This document shows positions 33,540 to 53,173 of a DNA stretch of 64,000 nt, in pieces. The DNA is from a virus (Duplodnaviria > Caudoviricetes), in the IMG/VR virus record IMGVR_UViG_3300028886_000045, one strand, 5' to 3'. Each line of letters begins with the position of its first letter. The stretch's first letter is position 1. The notes below the pieces were generated by a model, which worked only from the letters and a program-made list of their open reading frames with translations, searched no databases and was not told where the DNA came from. The translations under genes were made by a program, and so were the position numbers.

Positions 33540-33863
33540 TTACGCTATCTCCTCTAACATATCCCTTATCCGCATAGCGTTCCTATACGCACATGGATAG
33601 TAGTTTACACCCAATTCATAGCATACCAAATCTAATGTGTCTATCAACCGCTCCCTATATCGCCTATCTATTACCGACAATTCGCCTTTCAAGCCTTTGC
33701 CACTCGCGTAATCCATATAACGGTCTTCCGTTCCTATTATCTTAGGCAATACTACCCTACGCCAAATATCATCCAATATCTTTTCTTCCCTATATATATG
33801 GGAATATGCGCGTATTATATATGCGCGGTTGTTAGGTACAACAGATTCAAATCTATGCTTCAT
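33540..33863 (-). CDS. hypothetical protein
   Basis: Between terS and terL. Confidence 0.6.
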   Translation of the reverse strand: MKHRFESVVPNNRAYIIRAYSHIYREEKILDDIWRRVVLPKIIGTEDRYMDYASGKGLKGELSVIDRRYRERLIDTLDLVCYELGVNYYPCAYRNAMRIRDMLEEIA

Positions 33864-37471: not shown

Positions 37472-38809
37472 TTACTCGCTTTGTTGCGTAACTTTCTTAA
37501 TCGGACGGATTGGAAGAGGTGTATAAAAATACCCCTCTGTTGAAAAAACTCCCCATTCGCCAAGTTCTTGTGATACCGAACCCCCAAAACTATCGTTTCC
37601 GTCCATCCTCTTTGTGTGGAATTGCGTGTATTCCGAATCCCATTGATAGTCGATATGTGTTATAGGGAACACTAATTGATTTCCGTTAATCTTTGATGTT
37701 ACTACAATAACTTCCATATCGCTACCTTTGTAGTTTCGTACTTTTTCAAAGGTGCAATTACTTGACAATTCTGCCCACTCGTTCTCGTTTGGTATATCCC
37801 ATTCGGGATTTCCTACTACTTTTGCAGCATTGTAAGCATCGGTTATCTCGTAATTTGCCCACTTATCCTCATACGCGCCCTTATCTTGTTGCCCCCATAT
37901 TATGCGCGACCATGTTTCAAAAGGTGATACATGATTCTGTGCTTGTATTGCTTCCAACGATGCGCCTTGATAACCTTGTGTTTCACCGAAATAGTAATAA
38001 TCCCCTTTCCCTATTTCTGTTTCAGCACCAAGGTTTTTGTTTGCCCACAAAGTGCCACTTGGTAAGCCCATATCTACAAACAGCATTTCGGTTGGGAATA
38101 CATACTTTTTGATAGGACGGATAGGACACGGCAAACTCACGGGGGAGGAGGAGAATGCTGCATAATTAGAATCCCCATCTATCATTGTCGTTTCTATTAT
38201 ATCTTCACCGCCACCACCACTCGACCTACAAGGAGACTGATAATATACTACGCCCGTATAATATATGTTACTAAACCAACATGGCATTATCAAAACATTT
38301 CCGTTAATTTTTGATGTTAGTTTCAAACCCTTGTTGTTTACAATACCATTACGACCGTTGATTTCGATAATTTCCATATCAGAATTATCTACCAATTCAG
38401 AGAAATCACTATGCTTCGGAATATCAAAGCCGTTTCCCATAATGACCTTTACGGCATTATTCTTGTCTGTAATCTTGTTATTTTCATAGTTTCCTTCCTC
38501 ACTACCCCACCATCCACTCTCATACGATTGTGGCTTGTAGTCTTCGTTTATCTTAGCCTCTAATTCCGCGCCTTGATAACCTTGTGTTTCACCGAAATAG
38601 AACCTATCGCCCGTGTCGGCTTCATCTTCTGCACCAAGGTTTACTTTCGCCCATAGCGTTCCACTTGGTAAACCCATATCCACAAAAGTGTCCAACAATG
38701 GGTCTCCATCAAGGTAAACGATTTTGTTCTCCCCCTTGACGAATGCCACTACAACCGTACCTTGTTGTACGATGTTTGCCCTCGCTTTTACTTCTTGTAT
38801 ATACTTCAT
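37472..38809 (-). CDS. protein with two tandem 'VDxGLPSGTLWA' Bacteroidetes domains
   Basis: FVDMGLPSGTLWA..NLGA..YFGETQGYQGA..SKINGN..PIRPIKK twice; DNA repeat at about 37962 and 38568. Confidence 0.8.
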   Translation of the reverse strand: MKYIQEVKARANIVQQGTVVVAFVKGENKIVYLDGDPLLDTFVDMGLPSGTLWAKVNLGAEDEADTGDRFYFGETQGYQGAELEAKINEDYKPQSYESGWWGSEEGNYENNKITDKNNAVKVIMGNGFDIPKHSDFSELVDNSDMEIIEINGRNGIVNNKGLKLTSKINGNVLIMPCWFSNIYYTGVVYYQSPCRSSGGGGEDIIETTMIDGDSNYAAFSSSPVSLPCPIRPIKKYVFPTEMLFVDMGLPSGTLWANKNLGAETEIGKGDYYYFGETQGYQGASLEAIQAQNHVSPFETWSRIIWGQQDKGAYEDKWANYEITDAYNAAKVVGNPEWDIPNENEWAELSSNCTFEKVRNYKGSDMEVIVVTSKINGNQLVFPITHIDYQWDSEYTQFHTKRMDGNDSFGGSVSQELGEWGVFSTEGYFYTPLPIRPIKKVTQQSE

Positions 38810-38830
38810 AGTCTTGTTCCTTTTAACGAA

Positions 38831-39160
38831 TTAACCTTTTGAACCGCTTGCACGCCTTACACCGCCCATGTAGGTACTGCGTGAATATTGCTTTTCAAGC
38901 GTTCTTTCGTATAAAGCATCTTGCTCCCCTATTGGTTTTCCCTTTGCTTGTGCGAGCATGGCTTCATACGCCTTTTTATAAGAAGGGGAATTTTGAATGT
39001 TTTTGGCATACCTTTCAGTAATACCCATTACCCTTTGCGCCCTATTCCTAAACTCTTCACTACTTATCTTTTTGGCATCCGCTAACGCCTCATTACGTTC
39101 ACGGATTCGGAACTCTTGGTTTGCCAAATCGCTAATACTTTTTGTCCTTCCCTTTGCCAT
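38831..39160 (-). CDS. small basic protein with C-terminal KG tag
   Basis: MAKGRTKS...QYSRSTYMGGVRRASGSKG*. Confidence 0.85.
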   Translation of the reverse strand: MAKGRTKSISDLANQEFRIRERNEALADAKKISSEEFRNRAQRVMGITERYAKNIQNSPSYKKAYEAMLAQAKGKPIGEQDALYERTLEKQYSRSTYMGGVRRASGSKG

Positions 39161-39172
39161 AACCTATTTTTT

Positions 39173-39517
39173 TTAACCTTTAGAACCACTTGCACGCCTA
39201 ACGCCACCCATGTATGTTGAGCGCGAATATTGGCGTGTTGAAGCCTTTTGTATGTCACGCGCCATAGCACGCAACCTTTCCCTATAATCACCGCTTGCAT
39301 TATTGCGATTAAAGAAAGCGTTCTTCGTCTTTTGGTACGAAGGTGTGCTTTCTATATTCCGCAAATACCTATCACCCGTCCGCGCTATCCTTTCCGTGCG
39401 CGTCCTAAATGTTTCTTCGCTTATCTTTCCGCTATCCCTTAATGCAGTAGCCGTATTATAAGCACGTTGATATTGGTTGTATATCTGCTCTGCGGATTTC
39501 GTTCTTTGCTTTGCCAT
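39173..39517 (-). CDS. small basic protein with C-terminal KG tag
   Basis: MAKQRTKS...QYSRSTYMGGVRRASGSKG*. Confidence 0.85.
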   Translation of the reverse strand: MAKQRTKSAEQIYNQYQRAYNTATALRDSGKISEETFRTRTERIARTGDRYLRNIESTPSYQKTKNAFFNRNNASGDYRERLRAMARDIQKASTRQYSRSTYMGGVRRASGSKG

Positions 39518-39520
39518 ATC

Positions 39521-39652
39521 TTAACCTTTTCCACCACTTGCGCGTCTGATTCCACCCATTGCGCCACCATTAAACGCCCTATCACCTAACGCCCTTCTTA
39601 CATTTCCGCTATATGCCCTACGGAAATATGCCATTCTCATATCTGTACGCAT
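39521..39652 (-). CDS. 43-aa peptide with C-terminal KG tag (absent from ORF track)
   Basis: Hand-translated MRTDMRMAYFRRAYSGNVRRALGDRAFNGGAMGGIRRASGGKG*; start may be a later Met. Confidence 0.8.
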   Translation of the reverse strand: MRTDMRMAYFRRAYSGNVRRALGDRAFNGGAMGGIRRASGGKG

Positions 39653-39667
39653 ACCCTAACCCTTTCT

Positions 39668-40009
39668 TTATCCTTTGCCACCACTTGCACGCCTTACACC
39701 GCCCATATAGGTGGAACGTGAGTATTGACGAGCGTCATTTTTTTCTATATATGGTTTATCTGCTTCAATCAACGACATTCCTGTCAAATGTGCATTCGCC
39801 TTATCCATCCTTTTGACGGTATTCTGATAGGAAGGGGTTTGGCTGATATTATGCGCATATTTCGCCTCTAACCTTGACGCAGTTTCCTTTCGCGTGTCAT
39901 ATTGCCGACTGTTATATCTTCCTTGTGCCAATCCTTCTTGTGCCAAACTCTGAATACGGATAAATTGATTGTATAAATCGTTAATGCTTTTTGTTTTTTG
40001 TTTTGCCAT
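39668..40009 (-). CDS. small basic protein with C-terminal KG tag
   Basis: MAKQKTKS...QYSRSTYMGGVRRASGGKG*; -7 box at 40041. Confidence 0.85.
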   Translation of the reverse strand: MAKQKTKSINDLYNQFIRIQSLAQEGLAQGRYNSRQYDTRKETASRLEAKYAHNISQTPSYQNTVKRMDKANAHLTGMSLIEADKPYIEKNDARQYSRSTYMGGVRRASGGKG

Positions 40010-40179
40010 ATTGGTATATTTTTTTATTGATTATTTTTTGCAAAGATAATACATTTCCGTTTCTTTGCTTATTGTATTTTTGCTTTCTTAATCACTTGAA
40101 ACACAATGAAGAAATACAAACAAAGAAAACCGCCTATCAAATGATAAACGGCTTTCGTAATAACAAACACATATATATA

Positions 40180-41064
40180 CTATTCACTTTCTTCTTCTGA
40201 AAATGCGTCATAGTCACCATCAATGTCTATAATATCCACCCTTTCCAACATATACGATGCTTGAAGGGTCTTTTCCATTGGGTCGCGGTGCATTTGCTCC
40301 ATAAACGCCATTTTCTCAGAGGGGGAGTTGAAACTAAGGATAACGTAACTAAGCATACCCCCATCATTTTCCAAATCGCTTTTGTTGTTTATCCTTTCCT
40401 TGATTTTTGCGACTTCGTTGTGTCTTGCAAGTTGGTTTTCTTCTGTATCTTCGTAGAAATCCACTTTGCGGTTTATCTTCGTGTTTTCTTCTGTTTCTTT
40501 GGTCTGCTTATCAACCTCTGCAAGTTCCTTGTTTTCCTTTGTCACGTCTTCTTTGCGCCATTGCCTTTCTTCTTTCGGCTTTTCTTCTGCGTCCACTTTC
40601 GAGCGTGCCTCCTCTTCTGCCAAATCCACGACTTCCAAGCCAAGCATTTCCATATCGAAATCGTCAAAGCCCGCGCTCTTGTAGTCTATATCCGACAACA
40701 TTTCCCTTAACATATCATCGTCATATTCACCTTGCGCCTTTCTGTTGTTCATGAAAAGGTTTTGTTCCTTTTCCGTCTGCAAGTCCAACTCTACGACATC
40801 AACCCTTAACATATAGTCGGTTTCCAAGTCGTTCTCGTCATACTTGTTTACCTCGTCCAATATGCTTACTTTCTGATGCCCCGAAACAATATTTCCCGTG
40901 GTCTTGTTATAGACAATTCCACCCATAACGCCAACCTTTTTCAAGTTAGCCTTCAGTAGTTTGCGCGATTCTTCGCTTATCTTTCGTGGGTTGTATTCCG
41001 CTAAGTGTATCTCACTCCTCTTGATTTCAACACTTTGCGCTTGCTTTATCTTGCTTTGCTTCAT
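40180..41064 (-). CDS. ParB/Srx N-terminal-like protein with acidic tail (copy 3)
   Basis: YNPRKI..GGIVYN..TGNIVSGHQ..EKEQNLFMNN..QGEYD. Confidence 0.85.
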   Translation of the reverse strand: MKQSKIKQAQSVEIKRSEIHLAEYNPRKISEESRKLLKANLKKVGVMGGIVYNKTTGNIVSGHQKVSILDEVNKYDENDLETDYMLRVDVVELDLQTEKEQNLFMNNRKAQGEYDDDMLREMLSDIDYKSAGFDDFDMEMLGLEVVDLAEEEARSKVDAEEKPKEERQWRKEDVTKENKELAEVDKQTKETEENTKINRKVDFYEDTEENQLARHNEVAKIKERINNKSDLENDGGMLSYVILSFNSPSEKMAFMEQMHRDPMEKTLQASYMLERVDIIDIDGDYDAFSEEESE

Positions 41065-41755
41065 AGTCTGCTATTATTTTGATGCTATACGGAAACTGCT
41101 TAATCATACGCGCGTAATCATTCGGAAACTTTTCGCGCATTACCAACATAGTATCTAAGTCTATACCAAAGCCTTGTGATACCATATTGGGATTATAGAC
41201 AAACGGCTTTATAAGATTTCGCGATTGTATATACTGCAACACTTCTTTGTTTGTCCACACCGCCAAAGGATAAACCATACCCTCCTTCCTTATGTACCCC
41301 GTCTTTGCGTACATCTTCAACCGCATACGCTTCATATAGCCATCAACACCCTTCATGCCACTAAACGCATAGTGCTGTCCGCTATCGTTCCTTACCCATT
41401 CCTCAACCTCGCCAACACTTCTTTCCCTTTTGTGGTTTGGGTCTTTCTTTGGCAGTTTGTACCTATCGTCTTCATCCATGAAGAAACCGAACTTCTCAAA
41501 CGCATCCGCTTGATAGTGCTTTATCTGCCTAACTTCGACATTGCCGTAACTTTCTGCCCACTTGATATAAGGCTGAACGTGGTCTAAATTGGGAACGAGG
41601 TACATATAATAGCAAATAACCTTATTGAAACGTGTTGCCAACATATCCAATAAGGCTATGCCATCTTTGCCACCCGCAGAATAGAACAAAACGGCTGTGT
41701 CCGTTTCCTTGCGGACGGTGTTTATTATCGCTATCGTATCAGCAAACTTTCCCAT
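41027..41755 (-). CDS. PAPS-reductase-like PP-loop protein (copy 3)
   Basis: YSAGGKDG PP-loop, GMKGVDG..R, YPLAVWT..VLQYI. Confidence 0.85.
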   Translation of the reverse strand: MGKFADTIAIINTVRKETDTAVLFYSAGGKDGIALLDMLATRFNKVICYYMYLVPNLDHVQPYIKWAESYGNVEVRQIKHYQADAFEKFGFFMDEDDRYKLPKKDPNHKRERSVGEVEEWVRNDSGQHYAFSGMKGVDGYMKRMRLKMYAKTGYIRKEGMVYPLAVWTNKEVLQYIQSRNLIKPFVYNPNMVSQGFGIDLDTMLVMREKFPNDYARMIKQFPYSIKIIADYEAKQDKASAKC

Positions 41756-41758
41756 ATC

Positions 41759-42427
41759 CTACAATTTTTTCAGATAATCGTAAACCTCATCTATCGCGGA
41801 AACGACCTTTTGGGTCTTTTCCTTATCCATTGCCATATCGTCACGCATATATATACGCTTGTTTAACTCAATCATAAAAGATAGATACTGCTTGCTACAT
41901 TGTGGGGTTAGGGAGTTTCCGTAAGGCGTATTAACGCCCACCTTGAAACCATGCTTTCTGAAAATGTCACAAACTGAATCTATAATATTTTCATTCGGCT
42001 TGCTCCAATCGTCATTATACCCAATACACACATCCACATCGCTCAACTCCTTTGGGAATGAATGGCAATCTACCAATATAGGGTTTTCGGCTTCTGTCAG
42101 CGATTTGCTAATCTTTGCCAAATAATCCTTTCGCGCGTCCAAAAGAAACTTTCGCGTGCTGTTGTTTAGTGGTTTTCTTGTGGCTCTCCCCATATATTCG
42201 TATAGGATGCCTTGACCCATGCTTTCCATTATGTCATTTTCCAACCTTTCAACATCGCACACGAAACGCGACCAACCGCAAATGTGTGAAATGATGCCTA
42301 CCCTATCAAAAATGACATCGGTAAACCAATCAGTCCACACATTAACGTACTTTATTACTTCTTTACCCCAACCGAAAAGGAAAACGCCCTTATCGCTTGA
42401 ATGTGGTATATTCAGTATAATATCCAT
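41759..42427 (-). CDS. N-formylglutamate amidohydrolase family protein
   Basis: IPHSS, TDWFTD, SRFVCDVER, DCHSFP, CIG, N.PY, MIELNKR. Confidence 0.85.
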   Translation of the reverse strand: MDIILNIPHSSDKGVFLFGWGKEVIKYVNVWTDWFTDVIFDRVGIISHICGWSRFVCDVERLENDIMESMGQGILYEYMGRATRKPLNNSTRKFLLDARKDYLAKISKSLTEAENPILVDCHSFPKELSDVDVCIGYNDDWSKPNENIIDSVCDIFRKHGFKVGVNTPYGNSLTPQCSKQYLSFMIELNKRIYMRDDMAMDKEKTQKVVSAIDEVYDYLKKL

Positions 42428-42435
42428 TTCTTTGT

Positions 42436-43149
42436 TTAGCCTTTGCTACCCATTGCCCTTCTCGCGCCATTCGCGACACCACCGCTCCGCTCGTTTCTTA
42501 TTATTTCCGCTAACTTATCGTTTCGCGCGTTAATCAAGCGGTCATACGCGGGGTCTTCGTTCTTTTCGCCATAGGACTTATAGGTGTCCATTTTGAAATC
42601 CTCTTGCTTGGTGTTTCTTGCTTTTATCAAGGCACTTAAAGACTTTGGCAAAATCATCGCAACCACATTAGGCTCACCATCCCTTGCTTGGTTATACCCA
42701 GTGGGTTCAAAATGATGATTAAATGGTATATATCCGAAAGCCTTTGCACCAAATTTCGCATACATACTTGGTAAGTTGCTTTTGCCCGTCCCCTCGAAAC
42801 AATCCAAGGAACGACCTCCATTTGCAACCGCGTGCGCCATGATAGTAGCCATGCCACCTTTTACCCCCGAAACATTGTAAACCGAAACCACGTCCCTTCC
42901 GTGCAACGCATATCCGATTTTTCCGTCTTTAGACATAAAGCACCGATATTCGCTTTTGTTCGCATATTCTTTTTGTTCGTGAACATCTACCATCCACCTA
43001 TTCGCGCTTGGAATACTTGCTTTTGCCTTAGATATTGCGTTAAAGAAACGATTTCCGTTTGTTGGTGACAATTCTATATTTGCGTGTTCAATCCCCGCCT
43101 TTGTTAAGGCTTTGAGCACCGCCTTTCCACTTACCGACTTCTTTCTAAC
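42436..43149 (-). CDS. GNAT-like protein with C-terminal KG tag; proposed GTT start (237 aa)
   Basis: Frame open from GTT at 43149 (VRKKSVSGKAVLK) directly after TGA; GGAGG 8 nt upstream; DVVSVY..GG.SLDCF..LP.MY.KFG; ends ARRAMGSKG*. ORF track uses GTG 43119. Confidence 0.7.
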   Translation of the reverse strand, partial: VRKKSVSGKAVLKALTKAGIEHANIELSPTNGNRFFNAISKAKASIPSANRWMVDVHEQKEYANKSEYRCFMSKDGKIGYALHGRDVVSVYNVSGVKGGMATIMAHAVANGGRSLDCFEGTGKSNLPSMYAKFGAKAFGYIPFNHHFEPTGYNQARDGEPNVVAMILPKSLSALIKARNTKQEDFKMDTYKSYGEKNEDPAYDRLINARNDKLAEIIRNERSGGVANGARRAMGSKG

Positions 43150-43161
43150 TCAGCAACCCTC

Positions 43162-43359
43162 CTATTGACTTATGAAATCAGCATAGTCTTTTGGTGACAT
43201 CTTATCACCAATCGCAGTTCTGATTTCCCTATTGGAAACCGCCCCCATTTCATTCTCCAACTCCCTTTTGGTATAAACGGGCTTTCCGTTCTGTTGCATA
43301 GACTCCAACTCCTTTCTGAGTGCGTCCTTATACTTTTCAATCTGCTTTTCTGTTACCAT
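43162..43359 (-). CDS. small hypothetical protein
   Basis: 65 aa between ASCH gene and GTT gene; its TAG overlaps the GGAGG. Confidence 0.7.
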   Translation of the reverse strand: MVTEKQIEKYKDALRKELESMQQNGKPVYTKRELENEMGAVSNREIRTAIGDKMSPKDYADFISQ

Positions 43360-43371
43360 AACTTACACTTT

Positions 43372-43758
43372 TTACTTGTTTATATTTTCGACATCAAGCA
43401 CCGCGCCCAAATGATACCACACTTGACTTTCGTAGTATTCAATGCCGTTTTCTTCAAACGTAATATCGTTTCCGTTCTCGTCCACACAGATAACAAACTC
43501 CGCGCTTTCCACTTCCACCAACATACGCGGTGCGTTCTGTCTCCGTCCGTTTATCAGATACAACGCATCATATTCGCGTGGCTTGATTTCCGCGTCCTCA
43601 TCTTCCATTTCCGCAATATACTTGTTTGCATTGCTTGGATATATGTAGCGGTGCTCTACCTTTTGCCTACCTTGCATGATTTCAACGAAATTGTTTCTTG
43701 TAATCTGTAAGGTAAGCACTTTATGATTCTGTGCGTATTCTTTTACTTTTGCGTTCAT
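43372..43758 (-). CDS. ASCH-domain protein
   Basis: LTLQI..FVEIMQGRQKVEHR..YDALYLING..YHLG. Confidence 0.8.
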   Translation of the reverse strand: MNAKVKEYAQNHKVLTLQITRNNFVEIMQGRQKVEHRYIYPSNANKYIAEMEDEDAEIKPREYDALYLINGRRQNAPRMLVEVESAEFVICVDENGNDITFEENGIEYYESQVWYHLGAVLDVENINK

Positions 43759-43767
43759 ATTCTTTGT

Positions 43768-43846
43768 TTGTTACGACTTTTTAGGGGTTGTTACGACTTG
43801 TTACGAGGGTTGTTACGACACAAAACCGTAACAAAAATCGTTACGA
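43768..43846. repeat. cluster of six (T)TGTTACGA-like motifs
   Basis: Direct copies at 43768, 43788, 43798, 43810, 43838 (TCG variant); inverted CCGTAACAA at 43826. Confidence 0.8.
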
Positions 43847-43859
43847 CCCACCCCCTTTG

Positions 43860-43933
43860 TTGCGGATAAAGGACTCGAACCCTTGACCACTTGCAAGTTA
43901 AACAAGTATGCTAACCAACTGCACCAATCCGCG
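43860..43933 (-). tRNA. non-canonical tRNA: initiator-type acceptor stem, anticodon AAC, U37/U38
   Basis: CGCGGAT-TG-GTGC AGTTGGTTA GCAT-A-CTTGT TTAACTT GCAAG-TGGTC-AAGGG TTCGAGT CCTTT-ATCCGCA-A; promoter 43943..43974; CCA not encoded. Confidence 0.85.
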
Positions 43934-43989
43934 ATGTTGGTACAAAGGTACTAATTTTTTCGCGTCCTTACAAAGTTTTACCAACTTTT

Positions 43990-44424
43990 TTATTCACTTT
44001 GATATTCGTGCAAAGCATCCTCAACCATTTGCAAAGCCTTTCCGTGCTTCTTCTGCAAATCGGGGTACTTCACGCCACGCCTATAATTGTGAAGCAAATC
44101 ATTGTGCTTTACTTTCAATGCAAGCATATTGTGCGAATCTATGATTTTCTGAACGTAGTCAAAATATCCGATTTCCTTTTTTCTGTGGGTTAGCAATTTT
44201 AGGGCTTCAATGCAATCCTCAGATATGCCCAACACTCTTAAATCTTCACCGCACACGTTACAGTCTTCCATAACATCATGAAGAATGCCAACAACTTTCT
44301 CGTTGTAATTCTCACCCATCATGCCAACTGCCAAAGGATGCAGTATATAGGGCTTGTTATCCCTATCATACTGCCCTTCGTGCATTTTGCTTGCATATTC
44401 TATGACTTTGAATATTGATACCAT
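43990..44424 (-). CDS. HD-domain hydrolase, SpoT/Mesh1-like (small alarmone hydrolase type)
   Basis: HEGQ..PYILHP..V..LHDVMED..LLT..VK..D..HN. Confidence 0.9.
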   Translation of the reverse strand: MVSIFKVIEYASKMHEGQYDRDNKPYILHPLAVGMMGENYNEKVVGILHDVMEDCNVCGEDLRVLGISEDCIEALKLLTHRKKEIGYFDYVQKIIDSHNMLALKVKHNDLLHNYRRGVKYPDLQKKHGKALQMVEDALHEYQSE

Positions 44425-44426
44425 TT

Positions 44427-44645
44427 CTAACCGATTTTTACATTCTCGTACTCGTCCTTTGAAATCTCAACACCGTAGTTGTAGCAATCGCTTGCAACCT
44501 TAGAATTTGTGATTTCGATTTCATTGCCACCGCTTACCTTGCGCACACACTTGATATATCCCTTTGTCGTGTGCCAATAGTGGCAGTAAACCATTACGTT
44601 GTCCTCGTACTTTTTGTAAATCTCGTAAATAACATTCTTTTTCAT
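44427..44645 (-). CDS. small hypothetical protein
   Basis: Follows promoter 44686..44717; ends EISKDEYE. Confidence 0.65.
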   Translation of the reverse strand: MKKNVIYEIYKKYEDNVMVYCHYWHTTKGYIKCVRKVSGGNEIEITNSKVASDCYNYGVEISKDEYENVKIG

Positions 44646-44731
44646 ATCTTTGTCGTTTTATAAGGTTTATCTCCTAATTACACTACAAAGGTACAATATT
44701 TATTTGAAATTACCAAATTTCTTAACACTTT

Positions 44732-45430
44732 TTAAGAAAAAACTGAATAATACCTTCTTGACGCTTGCCTTACACCTTGTTTATTTCTGCGTCCCTTGGT
44801 TGTGCCACCGCGTGACTGCTCGTAGTACATATGACCCTCGCCCGCGTTATAACCCGTGGTTCGCTTTATATTAAGGTATTCGTCACGACCGAGTATCTTG
44901 GCAGCACGCGCAGGCGGTTCTTTGGCGTAAATCATCTTTGGCGTATTGACTTGTATCTCAGCCACGACCTTTCCAACCTTGACATTTACGATATTACCAC
45001 TATACCCATCGAATTTGTCTGCCGTTTGCACCTTTGTCCTTATGTGCCTACTATCCGCGCCCAAATCCCTCAGTATCTTAGGAATATCCGCTTTGTTCGC
45101 AACAATCGTTGTCCTTACGGCATCCTTGATGTCTGCGACCTTATCACCAGCCTTGACTTTCCTTTCAATCGAATCCTTACCCTTTAGGTTTATCGGTGTG
45201 ACCCTTGCGCCATACTTCTTAGCAATATCCACCGCCATACCTTGCACTTCACCGCTAACAGCCTTTGCCCTTGACATAAGGCTATCAATCGCGCGATTTA
45301 CTGCCTTTGGTAGTTGCACGTTGGCTTTGCCACTATTCAAGCCACCACCGCCACCGCCTTTCCTTGATGCTATCGACTCCATAAGGAACATACCATAGCA
45401 CTCATATTCTATTCTTTTCAGTATTTCCAT
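44732..45430 (-). CDS. RelA/SpoT-type small alarmone synthetase-like nucleotidyltransferase
   Basis: LK..SIERK, DAVRTTI, GYSG, EIQVNT, H.YYE; Gly6 tract near N-terminus. Confidence 0.8.
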   Translation of the reverse strand: MEILKRIEYECYGMFLMESIASRKGGGGGGLNSGKANVQLPKAVNRAIDSLMSRAKAVSGEVQGMAVDIAKKYGARVTPINLKGKDSIERKVKAGDKVADIKDAVRTTIVANKADIPKILRDLGADSRHIRTKVQTADKFDGYSGNIVNVKVGKVVAEIQVNTPKMIYAKEPPARAAKILGRDEYLNIKRTTGYNAGEGHMYYEQSRGGTTKGRRNKQGVRQASRRYYSVFS

Positions 45431-45524
45431 ATCGCTTTTGTATTTTTCTGCAAAAGTAATATTTTGAAATCTAAAAGCCTTGTTTTACAACCTCGTATTA
45501 TTCAATATTTTCATAATGAATATT

Positions 45525-46022
45525 TTATGATAGGTTTGTGTCTAATATTTCGTCTATGACAAAGAAGAATGCTTTTGGTCTTTCCGTTTCGCTTATCGTG
45601 CCTTTCCTTATGTCATCCTCAACAGCCTTTAGGCTTGAATCCATTTCGTGACAACCGTACTCGCTTTGCAGAAATCCCACATCATCCGCGTCAATAGTCA
45701 TATTTCCGTTATACGACACACTTACATCCAAATACCAAGTATTATTGTAGTTGTGAAAGTGTATCTTACCGACCTCCCTTTGCAAGTCCACCACGGAATA
45801 CACCTTTTCCTTATCATAGCCTTTCTTCACCATTTGCTCCGACCACTTGTAAACATCATCGTCTAAAAGCCTATCACAATAGAAATCGCTGTAATCCCTA
45901 AATTCAACATTCTTTTCCCCCTTGACTATGCGCATAGCCTCATCACGCTTCATTATCAGACTTAGCGTTTCTATTGGCTTTGCGTTTGGGGGTGTTGGTA
46001 ATTCTTTATTCTTCATATTCAT
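45525..46022 (-). CDS. ASCH-domain protein
   Basis: LSLIM..IVKGEKNVEFR..IHFHNYNNTW.LDV; paralog of 49819..50346. Confidence 0.8.
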   Translation of the reverse strand: MNMKNKELPTPPNAKPIETLSLIMKRDEAMRIVKGEKNVEFRDYSDFYCDRLLDDDVYKWSEQMVKKGYDKEKVYSVVDLQREVGKIHFHNYNNTWYLDVSVSYNGNMTIDADDVGFLQSEYGCHEMDSSLKAVEDDIRKGTISETERPKAFFFVIDEILDTNLS

Positions 46023-46852
46023 TCAATGTCTAACGCTTCTATAATCACTTGTGGGTCTATCACCATATTAGGGGTACACCTTATGCCTAACACTTCACAA
46101 AACGCTTCTTTCTGCGCTTGTGTCTTAAAGTCCAAGACTACATACCTATCCGCATTATCCAACAACTTTTCCCCTTCGTTCCTAACGTGTTCTTTCTGCG
46201 CCTTGACTTCTTCTTTCGTCATGTGTGGCTGTGCGTCCAAGCGTGATTGAAACTCCGCGTTGGTTTCTTCCACCTTTGGCAGTACCGTGACCGCTTCACG
46301 CCTTTGCGCTTGTGGCTCTGTCTTTTCCCTTACCTTTTCCGTTTCTTCTGTTTCCGTGGCTTGTTTCGGTGCAAAGGCATCCTCTATGGTTTCAATTTCC
46401 CCTAAATCGTCATTGTCGGTTTCATAGTCGCGCAAATCAAGTATTTGGTTATATTCTTCATCGGAAATGCCTATTTCCTTGTAGTCAATATCCTCAATGA
46501 TATTTGCCACCAAAGCATAATCCACCTTAGAATTAGCCATTGCCATAAACGAAAGTTGGTTTTTCTCCTCCTTCTCGTCCATTTCCACAACTTCCACCTT
46601 TATATCGTAATCGGTGTTTGGTGTCCCATCGTACTTCTGTATCAAATCAACAGACATTAGCCTTTTGTGACCATCTACCAAATTACCCGTCCGTCTGTTC
46701 CAAACCATACCGCCCAATAATCCGACCTTTCGGATATTCTTTACTTGCAGTTTGATTTGCTCATCGGAATGGTTCTTAATATTGCAAGGGTTCATGTTTA
46801 TCTGTGAACGCTTGACAACCAAAGTTTCGCTTCTGTTTATATCCTTTGCCAT
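46019..46852 (-). CDS. ParB/Srx-like protein (copy 2)
   Basis: NIKNHSDEQIKLQ..GG.VWN..TGNLVDGHKR. Confidence 0.85.
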   Translation of the reverse strand: MAKDINRSETLVVKRSQINMNPCNIKNHSDEQIKLQVKNIRKVGLLGGMVWNRRTGNLVDGHKRLMSVDLIQKYDGTPNTDYDIKVEVVEMDEKEEKNQLSFMAMANSKVDYALVANIIEDIDYKEIGISDEEYNQILDLRDYETDNDDLGEIETIEDAFAPKQATETEETEKVREKTEPQAQRREAVTVLPKVEETNAEFQSRLDAQPHMTKEEVKAQKEHVRNEGEKLLDNADRYVVLDFKTQAQKEAFCEVLGIRCTPNMVIDPQVIIEALDIE

Positions 46853-46853
46853 A

Positions 46854-47630
46854 TTACGTTTCCTCTTCTGTGTAAACCTTAACGCCTTTCATTCTTGATA
46901 GCCTTTTCAGTTCTTTTTCTGCTTCTTTCTGTGCTTTCCTTTCGGCTTCTTCTGCCTCCCATTTCGGTATGATAACGCGCGTTGCGGGAAACTGCGAATA
47001 TATCAATTCCAAATCATCGGGGAAATCCCTTTCCAAGAATTTCAAGTAATGATAATCTATAATATCATCACCACTTGTTACCTCTTTCTTATTCGACCAT
47101 TCGGGGGATTTTAGGCAATTTTCTGCTATATACTCCATGCAATCCCTATTCTTGTACGTTGAAAGCGGATAGAACATTTTACCCTTCCAACTTATAGCCA
47201 TTTTGCCATCTTTATAGGAACGTAGCATTAACCGCCTATTCAACGAGTCCGCTTGCTTGAATCCCACACAACACCATTCAATCCCTACCTTTTCCCTTAC
47301 CTTTCCCACTATCTCCGTAAACCGCCAATACCTTTGATTGGGATTTCCCCTCATGCCTTGGAATCCGTACTTTCTGTATGAAAACAGCGTGTAATGTGGT
47401 ACTTGTATCAATTCCACGTTTGGGTATCTTCGCTTTACGAAAAGAAAATAACGCCTTATATGGCGCATATTGGGTACTATATACATAAAGCACACCACTA
47501 CGCGCCTAAACTTAGGGTAAACCAAATCCATTAATACTATGCTGTCTTTCCCCGACATACTGTGCATCAGTATTATTTCATCCGTTTCCCTTGCTATATC
47601 GTCTATTATTTCTTTTGCCCTATCCAACAT
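46854..47630 (-). CDS. PAPS-reductase-like PP-loop protein (copy 2)
   Basis: HSMSGKDS, GFKQADSLNRR, YPLS. Confidence 0.85.
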   Translation of the reverse strand: MLDRAKEIIDDIARETDEIILMHSMSGKDSIVLMDLVYPKFRRVVVCFMYIVPNMRHIRRYFLFVKRRYPNVELIQVPHYTLFSYRKYGFQGMRGNPNQRYWRFTEIVGKVREKVGIEWCCVGFKQADSLNRRLMLRSYKDGKMAISWKGKMFYPLSTYKNRDCMEYIAENCLKSPEWSNKKEVTSGDDIIDYHYLKFLERDFPDDLELIYSQFPATRVIIPKWEAEEAERKAQKEAEKELKRLSRMKGVKVYTEEET

Positions 47631-47632
47631 TT

Positions 47633-48565
47633 CTACTCAAACATACTGAGGAACTTTGAGGCTTCAATTACCAAATTTGCCGTGTTGTTAAATCCAAACA
47701 TTTCACAAAAATGCTCCTTTTCTTCCATATTGGCAAAACTTATAACCACATATTTCTCCGCATCGTCTAACTGATTGGATGCGTGCACTTCACAATGTTT
47801 CTTTGCACCCTTGACCTCTTCTTTCGTCATGTGTGGCATTTCTTCGTGCATTTTCACAATTTCTTCGCTTGTCATTTCCCTACTTGGTAGTTCTGTGACT
47901 GCTTCCCTTTGCGGTGCTTGCTGTGGCATTTGCTGTGGTACTTGATACGTTTGTTCCCCACCGTCACCTTCTGACACCCCACTCGCTTGCATTGCGTCTG
48001 TCTGTGGTGTTTCCGTCTGTGGTGTTTCCGCTTGTGGTACTTCGTCTTTCGGCTGTTCTGTTGCCTTTGGCTTTGGTGCAAACGCATCTTCCATTGTAGC
48101 CATCATGCCAATGGTGCTTTCTTCGTAATCAGCCTCATATTCTTTCAAGTCCAAAATCTGCTCATATTCCTCTTCTGAAATGCCGACCTCCTTGTAGTCT
48201 ATATCGTCTATGATATGTGCAACAAGGTTGTAATCAGCCTTTGAATTTGCCAAAGCCATAAAAGCCAACTGCTCCTTTTCGGCTTTCGCGTCCAATTCGG
48301 TTACTTCGACCTTGATTTCATAATCGGTTTCGGGCGTGCCATCATACTTGTTAAGTATATCCAATGACTGAACGCGCCTATTTCCGTCTATGATATTCCC
48401 CGTTACCGAGTTAATCAGCACACCGCCAAAATATCCCTTTGTCCTAATGTTTTTGGCTTGCAACTTGATTTGCTCATCGGAATGGTTCTTAATATTGTAA
48501 GGTGTTAGGTTGATTTCCGACCTTTTAATTACCTTGGTTTCGCTTTTACTATAATTCTTTGCCAT
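47633..48565 (-). CDS. ParB/Srx-like protein (copy 1) with low-complexity linker
   Basis: NIKNHSDEQIKLQ..TGNIIDGNRR; PQ(A/T)ET repeats. Confidence 0.85.
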   Translation of the reverse strand: MAKNYSKSETKVIKRSEINLTPYNIKNHSDEQIKLQAKNIRTKGYFGGVLINSVTGNIIDGNRRVQSLDILNKYDGTPETDYEIKVEVTELDAKAEKEQLAFMALANSKADYNLVAHIIDDIDYKEVGISEEEYEQILDLKEYEADYEESTIGMMATMEDAFAPKPKATEQPKDEVPQAETPQTETPQTDAMQASGVSEGDGGEQTYQVPQQMPQQAPQREAVTELPSREMTSEEIVKMHEEMPHMTKEEVKGAKKHCEVHASNQLDDAEKYVVISFANMEEKEHFCEMFGFNNTANLVIEASKFLSMFE

Positions 48566-48568
48566 ATG

Positions 48569-49282
48569 CTAAGATTGTTTTTGCTCTTGTTTCATTTTAC
48601 TTTCTGTCTGACTGATAATAACGCACGTTGCAGGAAAAGCGTTGTATATCTTTTGCAAGTCGCTTGGAAAGTTCTGTTGCAGATACTTTAAGTAACTATA
48701 ATTCGTTATATCTACTCCGTTACTTTGAAATTTTCCGTTAGTGCTATACCTTTCGGGGTTCTTCAAATGGTTCTTTTCGATATAATCCAATACATCGCTA
48801 TTCTTGTAGGTTGAAAGCGGATAGCACATTTTGGTCTTCCAATTTATCGCTTCCTTTCCGTCCTTATAGGAACGTAGCATTAATCGCCTATTCAAAGAAT
48901 CCGACTGCTTGAAACCCAAAACACACCATTCTATGCCGAACCTTTCCCTCACCTTTCCTATGATTTCCGAAAGATTGTATTTCCTTTGTCTGCCATCGCC
49001 TACCGTACCCATAAAACCCTCTTTTCGGTACTGCATCAAGCCGTAGTGCGGAATCTGAACAAACTCGACATTTGGGTATTTCCTTTTCGTGTACGCATAG
49101 TATCGGTTTATGTGTGATAGGTTAGGAACAACGTACATATAGACACACAAAACCCTCTTGAAATGTGGGTAAACCAAATCCATTAACGCTATTGAATCTT
49201 TACCCGACATTGAATGCAACAGAATAACGCTATCCGTTTCCTTTGCAACGTCTTCAATAATTTCTTTTGCCCTATCTAACAT
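48569..49282 (-). CDS. PAPS-reductase-like PP-loop protein (copy 1)
   Basis: HSMSGKDS, GFKQSDSLNRR, YPLS. Confidence 0.85.
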   Translation of the reverse strand: MLDRAKEIIEDVAKETDSVILLHSMSGKDSIALMDLVYPHFKRVLCVYMYVVPNLSHINRYYAYTKRKYPNVEFVQIPHYGLMQYRKEGFMGTVGDGRQRKYNLSEIIGKVRERFGIEWCVLGFKQSDSLNRRLMLRSYKDGKEAINWKTKMCYPLSTYKNSDVLDYIEKNHLKNPERYSTNGKFQSNGVDITNYSYLKYLQQNFPSDLQKIYNAFPATCVIISQTESKMKQEQKQS

Positions 49283-49344
49283 TATTTTGCTATTGTGTAA
49301 ACCTATAAGGGATGGAATTTGTTAAACCCCATCCCTTTCGTTTC

Positions 49345-49806
49345 TTACTTCTTTGACTTTCTTGTGGTCTTTGCGCCCTTTCTGCGTGAAGAACGCCTTG
49401 ACCCCCTTTGGGTCTGTTTCTTTGCACTCATTCGTTGCGCCCTTGAACCCTTATCTGCGACACCTACGGTTTTACTGCCTATATGTGTCATTGTAGATTC
49501 TATCCCCGAATACTTGTAGTTCTTACCCTTTACGACCATTTCGCCCGTAGATTTATTGGTAATACCCTCAGAGGTGATATGACCTACAACCCTAAACTTA
49601 CCATTTGCATCCCTTTTGTAAATGGCTTGCTTTTCCAAGTCACGGATGCCCATTTTGTTCATAGGCAATTTGTTTCCGTGCTCGTCTTTGTTCTGCGCAT
49701 AATTGGCTATTCCAATCTCGTAATCACCTTGACCGAAAGCCTTAATTACTGCTTGCTGTGTTCGTGTGTTTGAACCGCTACCTAATGCACGTTTAATCTC
49801 TGGCAT
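49345..49806 (-). CDS. basic hypothetical protein
   Basis: Lys/Arg-rich C-terminus; between ASCH and PP-loop genes. Confidence 0.75.
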   Translation of the reverse strand: MPEIKRALGSGSNTRTQQAVIKAFGQGDYEIGIANYAQNKDEHGNKLPMNKMGIRDLEKQAIYKRDANGKFRVVGHITSEGITNKSTGEMVVKGKNYKYSGIESTMTHIGSKTVGVADKGSRAQRMSAKKQTQRGSRRSSRRKGAKTTRKSKK

Positions 49807-49818
49807 AATAATAAAGTG

Positions 49819-50346
49819 TTAAATGTTAAACCTTTTCACTATCTTTCCGAGAGCAAAATAGAAAACATAGAACGGCTTAAAATTTTCACCTTCTTTTTCA
49901 ATAAAACGCAAACACTCCAAATCACCGTACTCGTCAAAAATCCAATCGGCAATTTCTTCATCCACAAACACCAAGTCATTCTCAGTACATTCAACATCTA
50001 ACGACCAAGTGTTATTGTAGTTATGGAAATGGATTTGTCTAACGATGCGTACAGGGTCTAATATATCCTTGACTTCATCGGGCGCACAAATCGCTTTTAC
50101 TTGCTCATTGTCTTTGTAGCAATTCAAAGCGTTCACTATTTCCTCATCCATTACCCTTTTGATGTAGAAATCCGTGAAATCCCTATACTCAACCTTCTTG
50201 CTTCCGTTAATTATATCTTCTGCATTCTGCTTTGTAAGAATCAAATCAAGAACTTCTATCTCTTGTGGCTCTTTTAGTGTTCTGTGAATCTTCGCGATTG
50301 CATCAAACTTTCTTTTCCAATTTTCGTACTCTGCCTCGTAATCCAT
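49819..50346 (-). CDS. ASCH-domain protein
   Basis: LDLIL..IINGSKKVEYR..IHFHNYNNTWSLDV..YFALG. Confidence 0.8.
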   Translation of the reverse strand: MDYEAEYENWKRKFDAIAKIHRTLKEPQEIEVLDLILTKQNAEDIINGSKKVEYRDFTDFYIKRVMDEEIVNALNCYKDNEQVKAICAPDEVKDILDPVRIVRQIHFHNYNNTWSLDVECTENDLVFVDEEIADWIFDEYGDLECLRFIEKEGENFKPFYVFYFALGKIVKRFNI

Positions 50347-50818: not shown

Positions 50819-51157
50819 TTAGCAATTTTGGGCGTATTTATGCCTTAATTCTACCAACGATGGCACATTATATCCCTCTTTGCGCATTAGATACAAATGT
50901 GTCCTTACGCTTTCCATTGTAACCCCTAACGTATCGGCTACTTGCACGACATCCATTCCGTCAAGAAACATTTGCAACATGGTTTCTTTCTTTTCCTTGC
51001 TCCAAAACCTTTCTTTCCGAAAGTTACGTTTCTGTATCTGATAATACACGGCTTGTCGCGAGCACCCTATCCAATCGGCAATTTCGGAAATCTTTCTTCT
51101 GCCTAAATTGTCGCTTATATAACGTAGTTCATCCTTGGTAAATCGCGTATATCCCAT
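50819..51157 (-). CDS. tandem HTH-repeat protein
   Basis: EIADWIGCS and VADTLGVT units. Confidence 0.8.
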   Translation of the reverse strand: MGYTRFTKDELRYISDNLGRRKISEIADWIGCSRQAVYYQIQKRNFRKERFWSKEKKETMLQMFLDGMDVVQVADTLGVTMESVRTHLYLMRKEGYNVPSLVELRHKYAQNC

Positions 51158-51160
51158 TTG

Positions 51161-51493
51161 TTATATCTTCCTTCTGTATGGCACATTGTAGCCTTTCTGC
51201 CTTAGTATGGATAATTCCATATACACGGCATGGGGCGTTACTTTCAGTAAATCGACTATTTCCCCCACTTTTGCACCATCCCTATACATTTGCACCAACT
51301 TCGCGTTTCTTTCTGCATTCCAAAAGTTAAACCGCCCCGTCTTGATACCCCTTTTCTTCAAATGATACCTTATTGCATCAGTCGTGCAACCTATCCATTC
51401 CGCAATCTCCCTTGGGGATTTCGTATAAGCATTATCCAATATGTATTGAATATCGCTTTTATCTAAACCTATGTAATGCCTTTTAGTACCCAT
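51161..51493 (-). CDS. tandem HTH-repeat protein
   Basis: EIAEWIGCT..FWNAERN..LR.KGYNVP. Confidence 0.8.
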   Translation of the reverse strand: MGTKRHYIGLDKSDIQYILDNAYTKSPREIAEWIGCTTDAIRYHLKKRGIKTGRFNFWNAERNAKLVQMYRDGAKVGEIVDLLKVTPHAVYMELSILRQKGYNVPYRRKI

Positions 51494-52526
51494 TTCGTTT
51501 CTTTTCTGCCCAAAATTCTTTTAGTGTTGGCAATTTCATACCTTCCTTACGCATTATTGTAAGTTGTGCGCTTATCGCCCTTTTACTGACTTTATACACA
51601 TCTGCCAATTCTTCTAAAGTCATACCCTTCTTTCGTAGTTCCAACAATTCCGCTTTACGCAAATTACTCCACTTGCTGAACCTTTCCACTTGGATATGGC
51701 GTTTATTCAGATTGTAGATAATCGTAGAAATATGGCATCCTAACTCATTAGCCATTTCCCCACTACTTTTCTTTCCTACATTTTCCAAAATGTATTGGAT
51801 TTCTTTTTCTGTTAATTTCGTGTAACCTTTATATGGTGACATTTTTTCCTTTAACCTTTCTTTTATTTGCCATAAAGTAGGCACTTCCATTCCGCTTTTT
51901 CGCGCTTCGTGCAACTGATTTCTAATTGCTACTTTCGTTGTTTCAAATTTTTCCGCTACTTCACCTAACGCCTTCCCACTTTCGAGCATCCGTATTATTT
52001 CTATTCTTTTTGATGGACTCCACCGACTGAAACGCGCAGCCTCTATACCCATAGCCTTTTGGTATGCCCTAATAGACACACTACTACACCCTAACCATTC
52101 AGCCATTTCCCTTGTGCTTAATATATTGGTGTTGTCTTTGATATATTGCTTATCCTCTTCTGTAAAACCGCCCTTTTCACAGAATGCAGACAATTTCTTG
52201 CGTTCTTTGAACAAAGGCACATCCACCCCTTGCGCACGCAACAGAACCAAACGGACATACACACTATTTCTTTTCATGTGGAACTTATCAGCCAAAACGT
52301 GCGCGGAATACCCTTGCTTTACCATTTCGATAAACTCACCGCTTCGCTTGCTATCCCACTTCAAATGACGCTTTAGTTTTATATTCTGTCGCTTGATATG
52401 ATTTCGGACACTCATCTCACAACACCCTATTTCATCCGCGATTTCATAGACGGATTTCTTATTGGCGTTTTCGACAATATATCGTTTGTCATTCTCTGTA
52501 AGTTTATAGTTTCCTTTTTTCTTCAT
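51483..52526 (-). CDS. multi-HTH-repeat protein (three double-HTH units)
   Basis: Three T.EDK.YI..N..E(I/M)A..(I/L)GC..W..G..P units. Confidence 0.8.
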   Translation of the reverse strand: MKKKGNYKLTENDKRYIVENANKKSVYEIADEIGCCEMSVRNHIKRQNIKLKRHLKWDSKRSGEFIEMVKQGYSAHVLADKFHMKRNSVYVRLVLLRAQGVDVPLFKERKKLSAFCEKGGFTEEDKQYIKDNTNILSTREMAEWLGCSSVSIRAYQKAMGIEAARFSRWSPSKRIEIIRMLESGKALGEVAEKFETTKVAIRNQLHEARKSGMEVPTLWQIKERLKEKMSPYKGYTKLTEKEIQYILENVGKKSSGEMANELGCHISTIIYNLNKRHIQVERFSKWSNLRKAELLELRKKGMTLEELADVYKVSKRAISAQLTIMRKEGMKLPTLKEFWAEKKRNGY

Positions 52527-52528
52527 AC

Positions 52529-53173
52529 TTACTTTGTTCTTATTTTGTACTTAGGAACTTCATACCCTTTCTTACGCGCAATAGCAAGCCTACACGCCAC
52601 GTTAAAGTGTGTAATGCCCATCCTTTGCGCTATTTCCTTGTGTGGCATTCCGACTTTCGCATATTCGCTTATCTCCTTGTACTTCTCATCCGTCCAAATA
52701 ATCCTTTTGTTCTTCAAATCGTGCTTTCGCTTGTAAATCCTTACTGCGTGCGCTGAAAAACCTATCATTTTCGCAATTTCCGTATTGGTCATTTTTTCTG
52801 CGTTTTCTTCAATACATCGCTTGTTCTCGTCCGACATACGCACAATGACACCTTCGTATTTGGGTCTGTCAAAGAAAGGAATATCATAGCCTTGCGCCCT
52901 TAACATTTGGGCGCGTCTGCGAACATACTCCACCGTCATACCCATTTTTTCGGCTATCACCGAACAATTTCTTTCCGACATTGCATAATGCAAGAATCTT
53001 TGGGTTCTTTCTTCATCCCACACCTTATTAAGCCTATCCTTTAGGTTGTACTTGTAATAAAGCACGGTCTTCACGTTTACCCCCAAAAATGTTGCTATGT
53101 CAATATTTGACATTTTACCCATGTTTTCGCGGATAAATGCTATTTCATTTATATTCAGTCTTTTCTTTGTCAT
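52529..53173 (-). CDS. multi-HTH-repeat protein (two double-HTH units)
   Basis: Same repeat unit twice. Confidence 0.8.
   Translation of the reverse strand: MTKKRLNINEIAFIRENMGKMSNIDIATFLGVNVKTVLYYKYNLKDRLNKVWDEERTQRFLHYAMSERNCSVIAEKMGMTVEYVRRRAQMLRAQGYDIPFFDRPKYEGVIVRMSDENKRCIEENAEKMTNTEIAKMIGFSAHAVRIYKRKHDLKNKRIIWTDEKYKEISEYAKVGMPHKEIAQRMGITHFNVACRLAIARKKGYEVPKYKIRTK

Follow-up and report, generated by a model that had tools for sequence, protein, structure and literature searches.

Between positions 40180 and 50346 of the DNA analysed here, a 179-kb cattle-gut phage carries three times over the PP-loop, ParB-like and ASCH-like genes of a conserved four-part cassette of Bacteroidota phages and prophages, which consists of an ASCH protein, a small basic protein, a PP-loop protein and a ParB-like protein. 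The window, as we call the whole stretch of 64,000 nucleotides (nt), corresponds at its positions 1-63457 to the opening 63.5 kb, in reverse orientation, of an IMG/VR virus record of 178.7 kb (IMGVR_UViG_3300028886_000045; completeness estimate, 96%). The best single reading of the cassette, to which we give somewhat less than an even chance, is that, at about the time of packaging, it carries out a covalent modification that depends on ATP and is directed at DNA. The whole genome has exactly three copies each of the PP-loop, ParB-like and ASCH genes, plus a weaker fourth member of phrog_625, the family matched by all three ASCH genes. The array stretch was recovered in runs from 16 ruminant-gut studies, and because a 28.7-kb contig from an independent study is collinear with it from 38800 to 50119, the triplication is not an assembly artefact.

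A sequence-only reading of the window had seen in this region three PP-loop genes, each followed at once by a ParB/Srx-like gene, and three ASCH-like genes. All nine are there, on the minus strand like every other gene of the region, and their folds are backed by profiles and, for PB3 and AS3, by predicted structures. Block 1 runs from 50346 down to 45525 with gaps of at most 62 nt, in the order AS1 (49819-50346), the small basic gene g49806 (49345-49806), PP1 (48569-49282), PB1 (47633-48565), PP2 (46854-47630), PB2 (46019-46852) and AS2 (45525-46022, overlapping the end of PB2 by 4 nt). Block 3 is also tight and comprises AS3 (43372-43758), g43359, g43119 (42436-43119), a gene of the N-formylglutamate-amidohydrolase family (41759-42427), PP3 (41027-41755) and PB3 (40180-41064), the last two overlapping by 38 nt. 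One RNA library yielded contigs over blocks 1 and 3 and none at about 45.9-47.6 kb, where PP2 and PB2 are, but such contigs give no ranking of expression and may stem from carried-over DNA.

The three PP-loop proteins (PP1, 237 amino acids [aa]; PP2, 258 aa; PP3, 242 aa) are predicted from their sequences to be ATP pyrophosphatases or adenylyl-transferases of the phosphoadenosine phosphosulfate (PAPS)-reductase/CysD superfamily and not PAPS reductases. All three match Pfam PAPS_reduct weakly (E values of 1.5e-3, 9.7e-5 and 4.4e-8 for PP1, PP2 and PP3), with PF01507 scores that lie above the 22.5-bit cut-off for PP3 (33.8) and PP2 (22.9) and just below it for PP1 (19.0), and all three match phrog_424 (E values from 6.6e-20 to 3.6e-15). 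A profile built from 32 sequences of the family found CysD (1zun; E = 6.4e-7) as its best solved structure and also the PAPS reductases 7lhr and 2oq2. The family retains the ATP-binding S-x-G-G-K-D motif, together with G-x-K-x-x-D and YPL..W motifs; S-x-x-G-K-D, G-x-K-x-x-D and Y-P are invariant across the alignments, which also display the S-x-G motif, and PP2, a tandem paralog of PP1, keeps all the invariant residues. The motifs read earlier in the window, HSMSGKDS and YSAGGKDG, are present.

Homologs of these proteins bear the names "phosphoadenosine phosphosulfate reductase" and "sulfate adenylyltransferase subunit 2" in databases, and it is routine to score phage genes that resemble PAPS reductases as sulfur "auxiliary metabolic genes". 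Taken at face value, such names would make the cassette part of genuine sulfate assimilation, through a PAPS/APS reductase or an ATP sulfurylase, an explanation that we rate as having practically no chance of being right. In the family alignments (A3 and A4) the only invariant cysteine lies in one beta-strand, and there is neither an ECGLH tail nor any conserved redox or Fe-S cysteine; the absence of these C-terminal motifs had already been remarked on in the first reading. The proteins terminate about 45 residues past the S-x-G motif. Their scores against the NCBIfam cysH/PAPS_reductase models are 12.3-15.1 bits, against cut-offs of 154-254, and the best against CysD is 22.7 bits, against a cut-off of 195; taken over all CysH/CysD models, 12-23 bits stand against cut-offs of 154-413. 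Because the redox and Fe-S cysteines and the ECGLH tail are missing and the NCBIfam scores fall an order of magnitude below the cut-offs, PP1 to PP3 are not PAPS reductases. In the late regions of phages, furthermore, the PP-loop gene is in every case linked with ParB-like and ASCH genes, and on all these grounds we rejected a role in sulfur metabolism.

The ParB-like proteins (PB1, 310 aa; PB2, 277 aa; PB3, 294 aa) gave no match as single sequences with Pfam, and profiles and structures were needed to place them. They match phrog_9353 (E values from 2e-39 to 1e-69) and the ParB-like phrog_620 (1e-10 to 2e-19). The family, which has 4,477 representatives at E values of 1e-3 or less, gave a profile that matched ParB (4umk; E = 2.7e-4), Spo0J (6sdk; E = 1e-3) and Noc, and 11 of 40 members match PF02195. 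An AlphaFold2 (AF2) model of PB3, confident over residues 1-145, resembles CDP-bound ParB (6sdk; Foldseek E = 5.5e-5), with further matches to Noc, PadC, KorB, sulfiredoxin and the serine kinase SerK. From these profiles and the model, the PB proteins are predicted to carry the N-terminal fold of ParB that binds nucleoside triphosphates (NTPs). The likeness to canonical partition ParB is confined to this N-terminal domain; a conserved C-terminal element of 50 aa stands apart from it. By eye this element may be ribbon-helix-helix-like, and an atlas search with the last 90 residues of PB3 returned nothing usable.

The nucleotide-binding motifs have diverged. Box II, canonically G-E-R-R, reads G-H-Q-(R/K) in the family alignment, with GHQK in PB3, GHKR in PB2 and GNRR in PB1. 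In PB1 and PB2, Box I is altered as well, from YNPR to (Y/C)NIK, so that both boxes are diverged. The linkers that follow are acidic in all three proteins and are predicted with low confidence; that of PB1 is rich in proline and glutamine and leads to the small conserved C-terminal domain. The PB1 linker also holds a short Pro/Gln/Thr-rich repeat, PQAETPQTETPQTD, that is absent from PB2. The ParB domain finds its closest known relatives in ParB domains joined to phage DNA methyltransferases (phrog_498, E = 2.8e-20; PADLOC MTase_II, E = 2.3e-11, matched over the N-terminal domain of the model only), and no match to the PADLOC DndB or SspE models was found.

AS1 (175 aa), AS2 (165 aa) and AS3 (128 aa) did not match Pfam PF04266 (ASCH). 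They match phrog_625 (E = 1.9e-4 for AS1 and 6e-13 for AS3), and AS1 and AS2, which are 39% identical, have in common the signature G-x-K-x-x-E-x-R (alignment A2). AS3 is modelled by AF2 with an ASCH fold, at a mean predicted local distance difference test (pLDDT) of 95: the top 14 VIA matches all belong to the ASCH superfamily (3iuw, Z of 7.5 and root mean square deviation of 2.7 over 77 aligned residues), and Foldseek gave ZmASCH at a probability of 0.99 but an E value of 0.05. AS3 is 57% identical to the ASCH gene of a Bacteroides prophage cassette. The weaker fourth member of phrog_625 is a gene of 102 aa directly downstream of the portal gene (29817-30125, minus strand), with a phrog E value of 3.9e-8 and a weak Pfam ASCH match of 15.9 bits.

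For comparison with other phages we assembled IMG/VR contigs, metagenome contigs encoding close homologs, GTDB genomes and cultured phages, and annotated 163 loci with hidden Markov models (HMMs). Scanning with a profile yielded 68 genomes and 374 viral contigs, 80 of which were retrieved; these genomes are almost all of Bacteroidota (Bacteroidales, Flavobacteriales, Sphingobacteriales and others), and the family is phage- or prophage-borne. The order ASCH, PP-loop, ParB-like is kept in about 150 of the 163 loci, so the pairing and synteny seen in the window are conserved in other phages. ASCH, PP-loop and ParB-like genes form the locus in 81 cases, and ASCH, PP-loop, ParB-like and a further PP-loop gene in 58. 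The gap from PP-loop to ParB-like gene has a median of -4 nt (159 pairs). Between the ASCH and PP-loop genes the median gap is 364 nt, and a basic open reading frame (ORF) of at least 30 aa occupies it in 137 of 151 loci, which makes the small basic protein the fourth part of the cassette. Cultured examples are Bacteroides phage BS-TP2 (gp52 ASCH, gp53, gp54, gp55, gp56 terS-like and gp57 terL) and Riemerella phage RAP44 (gp34-gp30).

In small temperate phages the cassette stands directly before terS, terL and the portal gene. Downstream of the ParB-like gene, 65 loci have terL at a median distance of 554 nt, with only terS between, and in 59 loci the cassette is at most 1.5 kb upstream of terL, usually with nothing but terS intervening. 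Late activators occupy that position in other phages. The cassette could be a regulator of late genes or packaging, a co-activator pair like IbrA/IbrB in which the ParB-like protein is an NTP-gated DNA clamp heading the late operon and the Arg-rich small protein a nucleic-acid-binding cofactor. Consistent with this, DndB, KorB and other transcription factors make use of the ParB-CTPase fold too, and pairs in Flavobacterium phages FCL-2 and 6H have been annotated as IbrA/IbrB (PMC4541368). We nevertheless find this explanation rather unlikely: an intact ATP-pyrophosphatase active site is conserved family-wide, which a regulator would not need, and both here and in phages of 100-130 kb the cassettes are multiplied and lie away from the packaging genes, which would be unusual for a master regulator. 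In the window the end of PB3 is 5.75 kb upstream of terS (33853-34425), close to the 6 kb first estimated.

The proteins encoded in the slot between the ASCH and PP-loop genes include 69 distinct sequences in recognisable families, BS-TP2 gp53 among them, with medians of 21% K+R and 6% D+E. In block 1 the slot is filled by g49806, a very basic protein of 153 aa that has no family match and the same position as in the 137 loci. Three more basic proteins, g40009, g39517 and g39160 (38831-40009, minus strand), are encoded beyond PB3; they are paralogs of 109-114 aa, 44-46% identical, and all end in GGVRRASG(G/S)KG. Weak alignments (E values of 3e-4 to 0.03 in a small database) link them to the N-terminal half of the slot protein of locus L099, the closest relative of PP1/PP2, and by tblastn a stretch matching them lies after the ParB-like gene in locus L152 (E = 4e-7). 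A similar tail, ARRAMGSKG, closes g43119 (227 aa; phrog_2563), homologs of which follow the ParB-like gene, with terS-terL downstream, in L153, L154 and L165 (tblastn E = 1e-33), Muribaculaceae/Porphyromonadaceae loci on contigs of isolates or metagenome-assembled genomes.

These tails raise the question of peptide tagging, the conjugation suggested in the first reading, in which the PP-loop protein would adenylylate the C-terminal glycine of the small basic proteins, or alternatively a tail serine phosphorylated by the Srx/SerK-like ParB fold, and then transfer them to DNA or to a virion or host protein. Each cassette would have its own substrate paralog. Besides the regular presence of a basic ORF in the slot, the peptide ends speak for it, since among 46 non-redundant slot peptides 17 have a C-terminal glycine, compared to 6.1 expected from shuffles, and 13 have GG within the last seven residues, compared to 4.5. 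These enrichments are inflated, however, because the peptide families are not phylogenetically independent, and a C-terminal glycine is not universal, many families having V, R, S or K as their last residue. The three PP-loop/ParB pairs are matched in number by the three small paralogs, with g49806 in the canonical slot in addition, and the position of the g43119 homologs after ParB-like genes and of an amidohydrolase-family gene inside block 3 would also suit tagging. On the other side, HMMs of the small prophage-type slot peptides do not match the tail-bearing proteins of the window, whose likeness in the tails was seen by inspection only; the small proteins are of low complexity and could simply bind DNA; and no ligase-like or E2-like partner is present. 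Tagging therefore appears to us unlikely. The earlier suggestion that each machine has a small substrate of its own fares accordingly: gene order speaks for a dedicated small protein, through the slot ORFs, g49806 and the three paralogs, and does not distinguish a substrate from a DNA-binding subunit.

The three copies differ in age. PP1 and PP2 are 61% identical to each other and 31-34% identical to PP3, as expected from the first description of copies 1 and 2 as close paralogs and copy 3 as diverged, and PB1 and PB2 are 50% identical. PP1 and PP2 are sisters in their tree (Shimodaira-Hasegawa approximate likelihood ratio test [SH-aLRT] support, 82), PB1 and PB2 are sisters in theirs (SH-aLRT, 98), and the relatives with which both couples nest are the same, L099 and L022. 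The agreement of the two trees indicates that pairs 1 and 2 arose by tandem duplication of a whole pair in this lineage, long enough ago for the identities of the PP-loop and ParB-like proteins to have fallen to their present values. Because PP3, PB3 and AS3 all fall within the BS-TP2-type clade, with supports of 95-99, the AS3/PP3/PB3 set belongs, on the evidence of the trees, to a second type of the cassette, one that separated anciently and that Bacteroides phage BS-TP2 has as well. The history of the array is one duplication plus this second type. All three trees divide their components between the same two types, which agrees with the proposal of parallel machines. Complete relatives of 130-220 kb have two PP-loop genes each, and the three pairs found here are the most among the loci compared. 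A Bacteroides prophage with a type-B cassette, L011, has in addition a second, faint PAPS_reduct-like gene (263 aa; L011:1609-2400) about 6 kb upstream, with no ParB-like gene near it.

Among known systems, the closest to the cassette are pairs of the IbrA/IbrB type and, more distantly, DndC/DndB and CysD; the analogies to IbrA/IbrB and DndC drawn at the outset were therefore in the right neighbourhood. IbrA/IbrB is a system of Escherichia coli ECOR-9, to which the cassette is likened by its gene pairing: a PP-loop gene of the PAPS-reductase family adjoins a ParB-like gene in prophage-type DNA, and the window has three PF01507-family genes adjacent to and co-oriented with genes for ParB/Srx-fold proteins. 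The phage cassette differs in its additional ASCH and small basic proteins, in its position before the terminase genes of small phages, and in the three copies found here. CysD, the small subunit of ATP sulfurylase, is an adenylyl-transferase driven by its partner GTPase, CysN. It has the same ATP-binding loop, and CysD/CysN offers an analogy for a PP-loop protein working with a ParB-like one; in contrast, the cassette proteins score far under the CysD cut-offs, their context is not sulfur-related, and their partner is a ParB-fold protein and not a translational-type GTPase.

Pairs of PP-loop and ParB proteins also occur in the Dnd and Ssp systems of DNA modification (PMC10853773). DndC/DndB and SspD/SspE likewise join a PP-loop ATP pyrophosphatase to a ParB-superfamily NTPase, and those systems modify DNA chemically (PMC10853773). 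The PP-loop proteins of the cassette, unlike theirs, are without Fe-S or sulfur-relay cysteines, and there was no match to the PADLOC models of DndC, SspD and BrxP for PP1 to PP3 at E values up to 1, or to those of DndB and SspE. The window showed no DndD/E- or SspB/C-like genes, and no cysteine desulfurase (PF00266) was found in the 178.7-kb genome; IscS of the host could stand in for it, but acceptor cysteines are missing from the PP-loop proteins. Fusions that join ParB to a methyltransferase or to the PUA-like DUF3850 domain are over-represented among phages (PMC12704722). The cassette resembles them in that its ParB domain is closest to those of the methyltransferase fusions and in the recurring association of ParB with a PUA-like/ASCH domain, whereas its partners are separate genes and its enzyme is a PP-loop ATPase rather than an S-adenosylmethionine-dependent methyltransferase. 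NinC of phage lambda, a PAPS-reductase-family protein of the non-essential nin region (PMC10695390), is also a phage-borne PF01507 protein, encoded at the end of the early region, but it has no adjacent ParB-like or ASCH gene. Kinship of the PP-loop profile with NinC was rejected, since hhalign gave an E value of 0.41 over one short motif only.

DNA-directed modification, the reading given above as the best, is suggested by several of these comparisons together: the ParB domain has its kin in methyltransferase fusions; phage phiEf11 has a related ParB-like gene at or beside one annotated as a Mom-like DNA modification protein; Dnd and Ssp pair the same two folds; ParB fusions recur in phages; and the cassette stands before the packaging genes. 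In such a mechanism the ParB-like subunit would bind NTP and load the complex onto phage DNA. The PP-loop subunit would then adenylylate a target group with ATP, releasing pyrophosphate, the target being a base carbonyl or a phosphate or carboxylate oxygen, and a nucleophile would displace AMP to leave a covalent mark. The ASCH protein might recognise or flip out the target or the modified base, and the small basic protein might be a DNA-bound cofactor or the attached moiety itself. The cassette would act late in the early phase or at the start of the late phase, on DNA soon to be packaged, and three copies, two of them recent paralogs and one of an old type, could provide different specificities.

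Several observations weigh against this reading. No modification chemistry, donor or product was found. Short palindromes and known restriction words are extremely depleted in the genome, as shown by observed and expected counts for GATC (1/449), AGCT (0/333), CTAG (0/298), GGCC (3/263), CCGG (4/216), CTGG (9/248), AACGTT (0/87), CAGTG (1/73) and GGACC (1/62), and GATATC, TTTAAA, CTTAAG, ACGCGT, TTCGAA and GGTACC do not occur at all. Such avoidance of restriction sites would be unexpected were virion DNA broadly protected, and it argues against blanket hypermodification of the DNA. Depletion of GGA/TCC was not seen in this genome. Neither a cysteine desulfurase, nor a tRNA-guanine transglycosylase (including the DpdA type of 7-deazaguanine DNA modification, PF01702), nor a thymidylate-synthase-like hydroxymethylase was found in the genome, and since these starter enzymes are not encoded, none of the known hypermodification routes is present. 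A search for longer, fused PP-loop/ParB forms of PP3 found none, which is weak evidence, and a complex prediction for PP3 with PB3 (score, 0.01) was uninformative for or against pairing. To our knowledge, IbrA/IbrB, the closest named pair, is known only genetically, as activators of prophage genes.

A role off the phage DNA is brought to mind by the genes between the two blocks. Block 1 is followed, in order, by g45430, an ORF of 72 aa, a gene for an HD phosphohydrolase (43990-44424; phrog_990, E = 1.6e-27) and a tRNA-Val gene with the unusual anticodon AAC (43859-43933), which lies between the HD gene and AS3; g45430, g44645 and the HD gene (43990-45430) are conserved neighbours. HD homologs are present in 60 loci. 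The gut phages L028, L047 and L101, of 100-130 kb, encode homologs of both g45430 and the HD protein (44-49% identical), which read from the opposite strand and separate the second PP-loop gene from a second ParB-like gene. An atlas lead (0.90) links g45430 to a cluster in which 17% of members have RelA_SpoT, and g45430 is possibly a RelA/SpoT-like protein, a lead only. The cassette might serve counter-defence or act on translation, for example by modifying RNA or tRNA or by consuming nucleotide signals, in concert with its neighbours: the tRNA-Val gene, the HD hydrolase and what may be an alarmone synthetase. ASCH proteins are known for RNA binding and ac4C hydrolysis, and the structural matches of AS3 include the RNase ZmASCH and the ac4C amidohydrolase YqfB; the neighbours accompany cassettes in other large phages; and the tRNA gene lies inside the region. 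We hold such a role to be quite improbable, as the nearest relatives of the ParB domain are fused to DNA methyltransferases, the HD gene and g45430 are absent from the cassettes of small phages, and g45430 has no RelA_SpoT match in Pfam.

The remaining surroundings can be described briefly. The amidohydrolase-family gene of block 3 (PF05013, E = 3.8e-21), inserted before PP3, has no homolog in the 163 related loci and is specific to this lineage. Directly 3' of PB3 is a terminator-like hairpin (40125-40156, minus strand) with a 14-bp stem and a T tract, identified as a consensus match only; then come the three small basic paralogs, a protein of 445 aa, a DNA methyltransferase, terS, terL and the portal gene. 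The 445-aa protein (37472-38809, minus strand) matched no Pfam or phrog family and looks like an internal tandem duplication, with VDMGLPSGTLWA, YYFGETQGYQGA and PIRPIKK each occurring twice, about 225 residues apart. Just upstream of block 1, at 50819-53173 on the minus strand, four consecutive genes match phrog_323/phrog_664 (helix-turn-helix DNA-binding and D5-like regulators) and form a paralog array of their own.

A more daring combination of these elements, which we regard as a long shot, would make each cassette a complete machine for linking peptide and nucleic acid: the PP-loop protein would activate the glycine-ended tail of its cognate small basic protein, the ParB clamp and the ASCH base reader would guide the covalent attachment of that protein to phage DNA before packaging, and the three cassettes and three substrate paralogs of this genome would make up orthogonal sets.

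The cassette occurs in hundreds of gut and rumen phages of Bacteroidota, among them the cultivable carriers BS-TP2 and RAP44, and its PP-loop family clearly does not belong among the sulfur auxiliary metabolic genes. To what is seen in those phages the present genome adds the triplication and its history, a matching number of small basic paralogs, and an avoidance of restriction sites that constrains the DNA-modification model. It also offers natural paralogs with diverged ParB nucleotide-binding motifs for studies of specificity. The cassette may reveal a new ATP-dependent modification of nucleic acid or protein, and solving its chemistry would bring annotation to a large block of viral dark matter.

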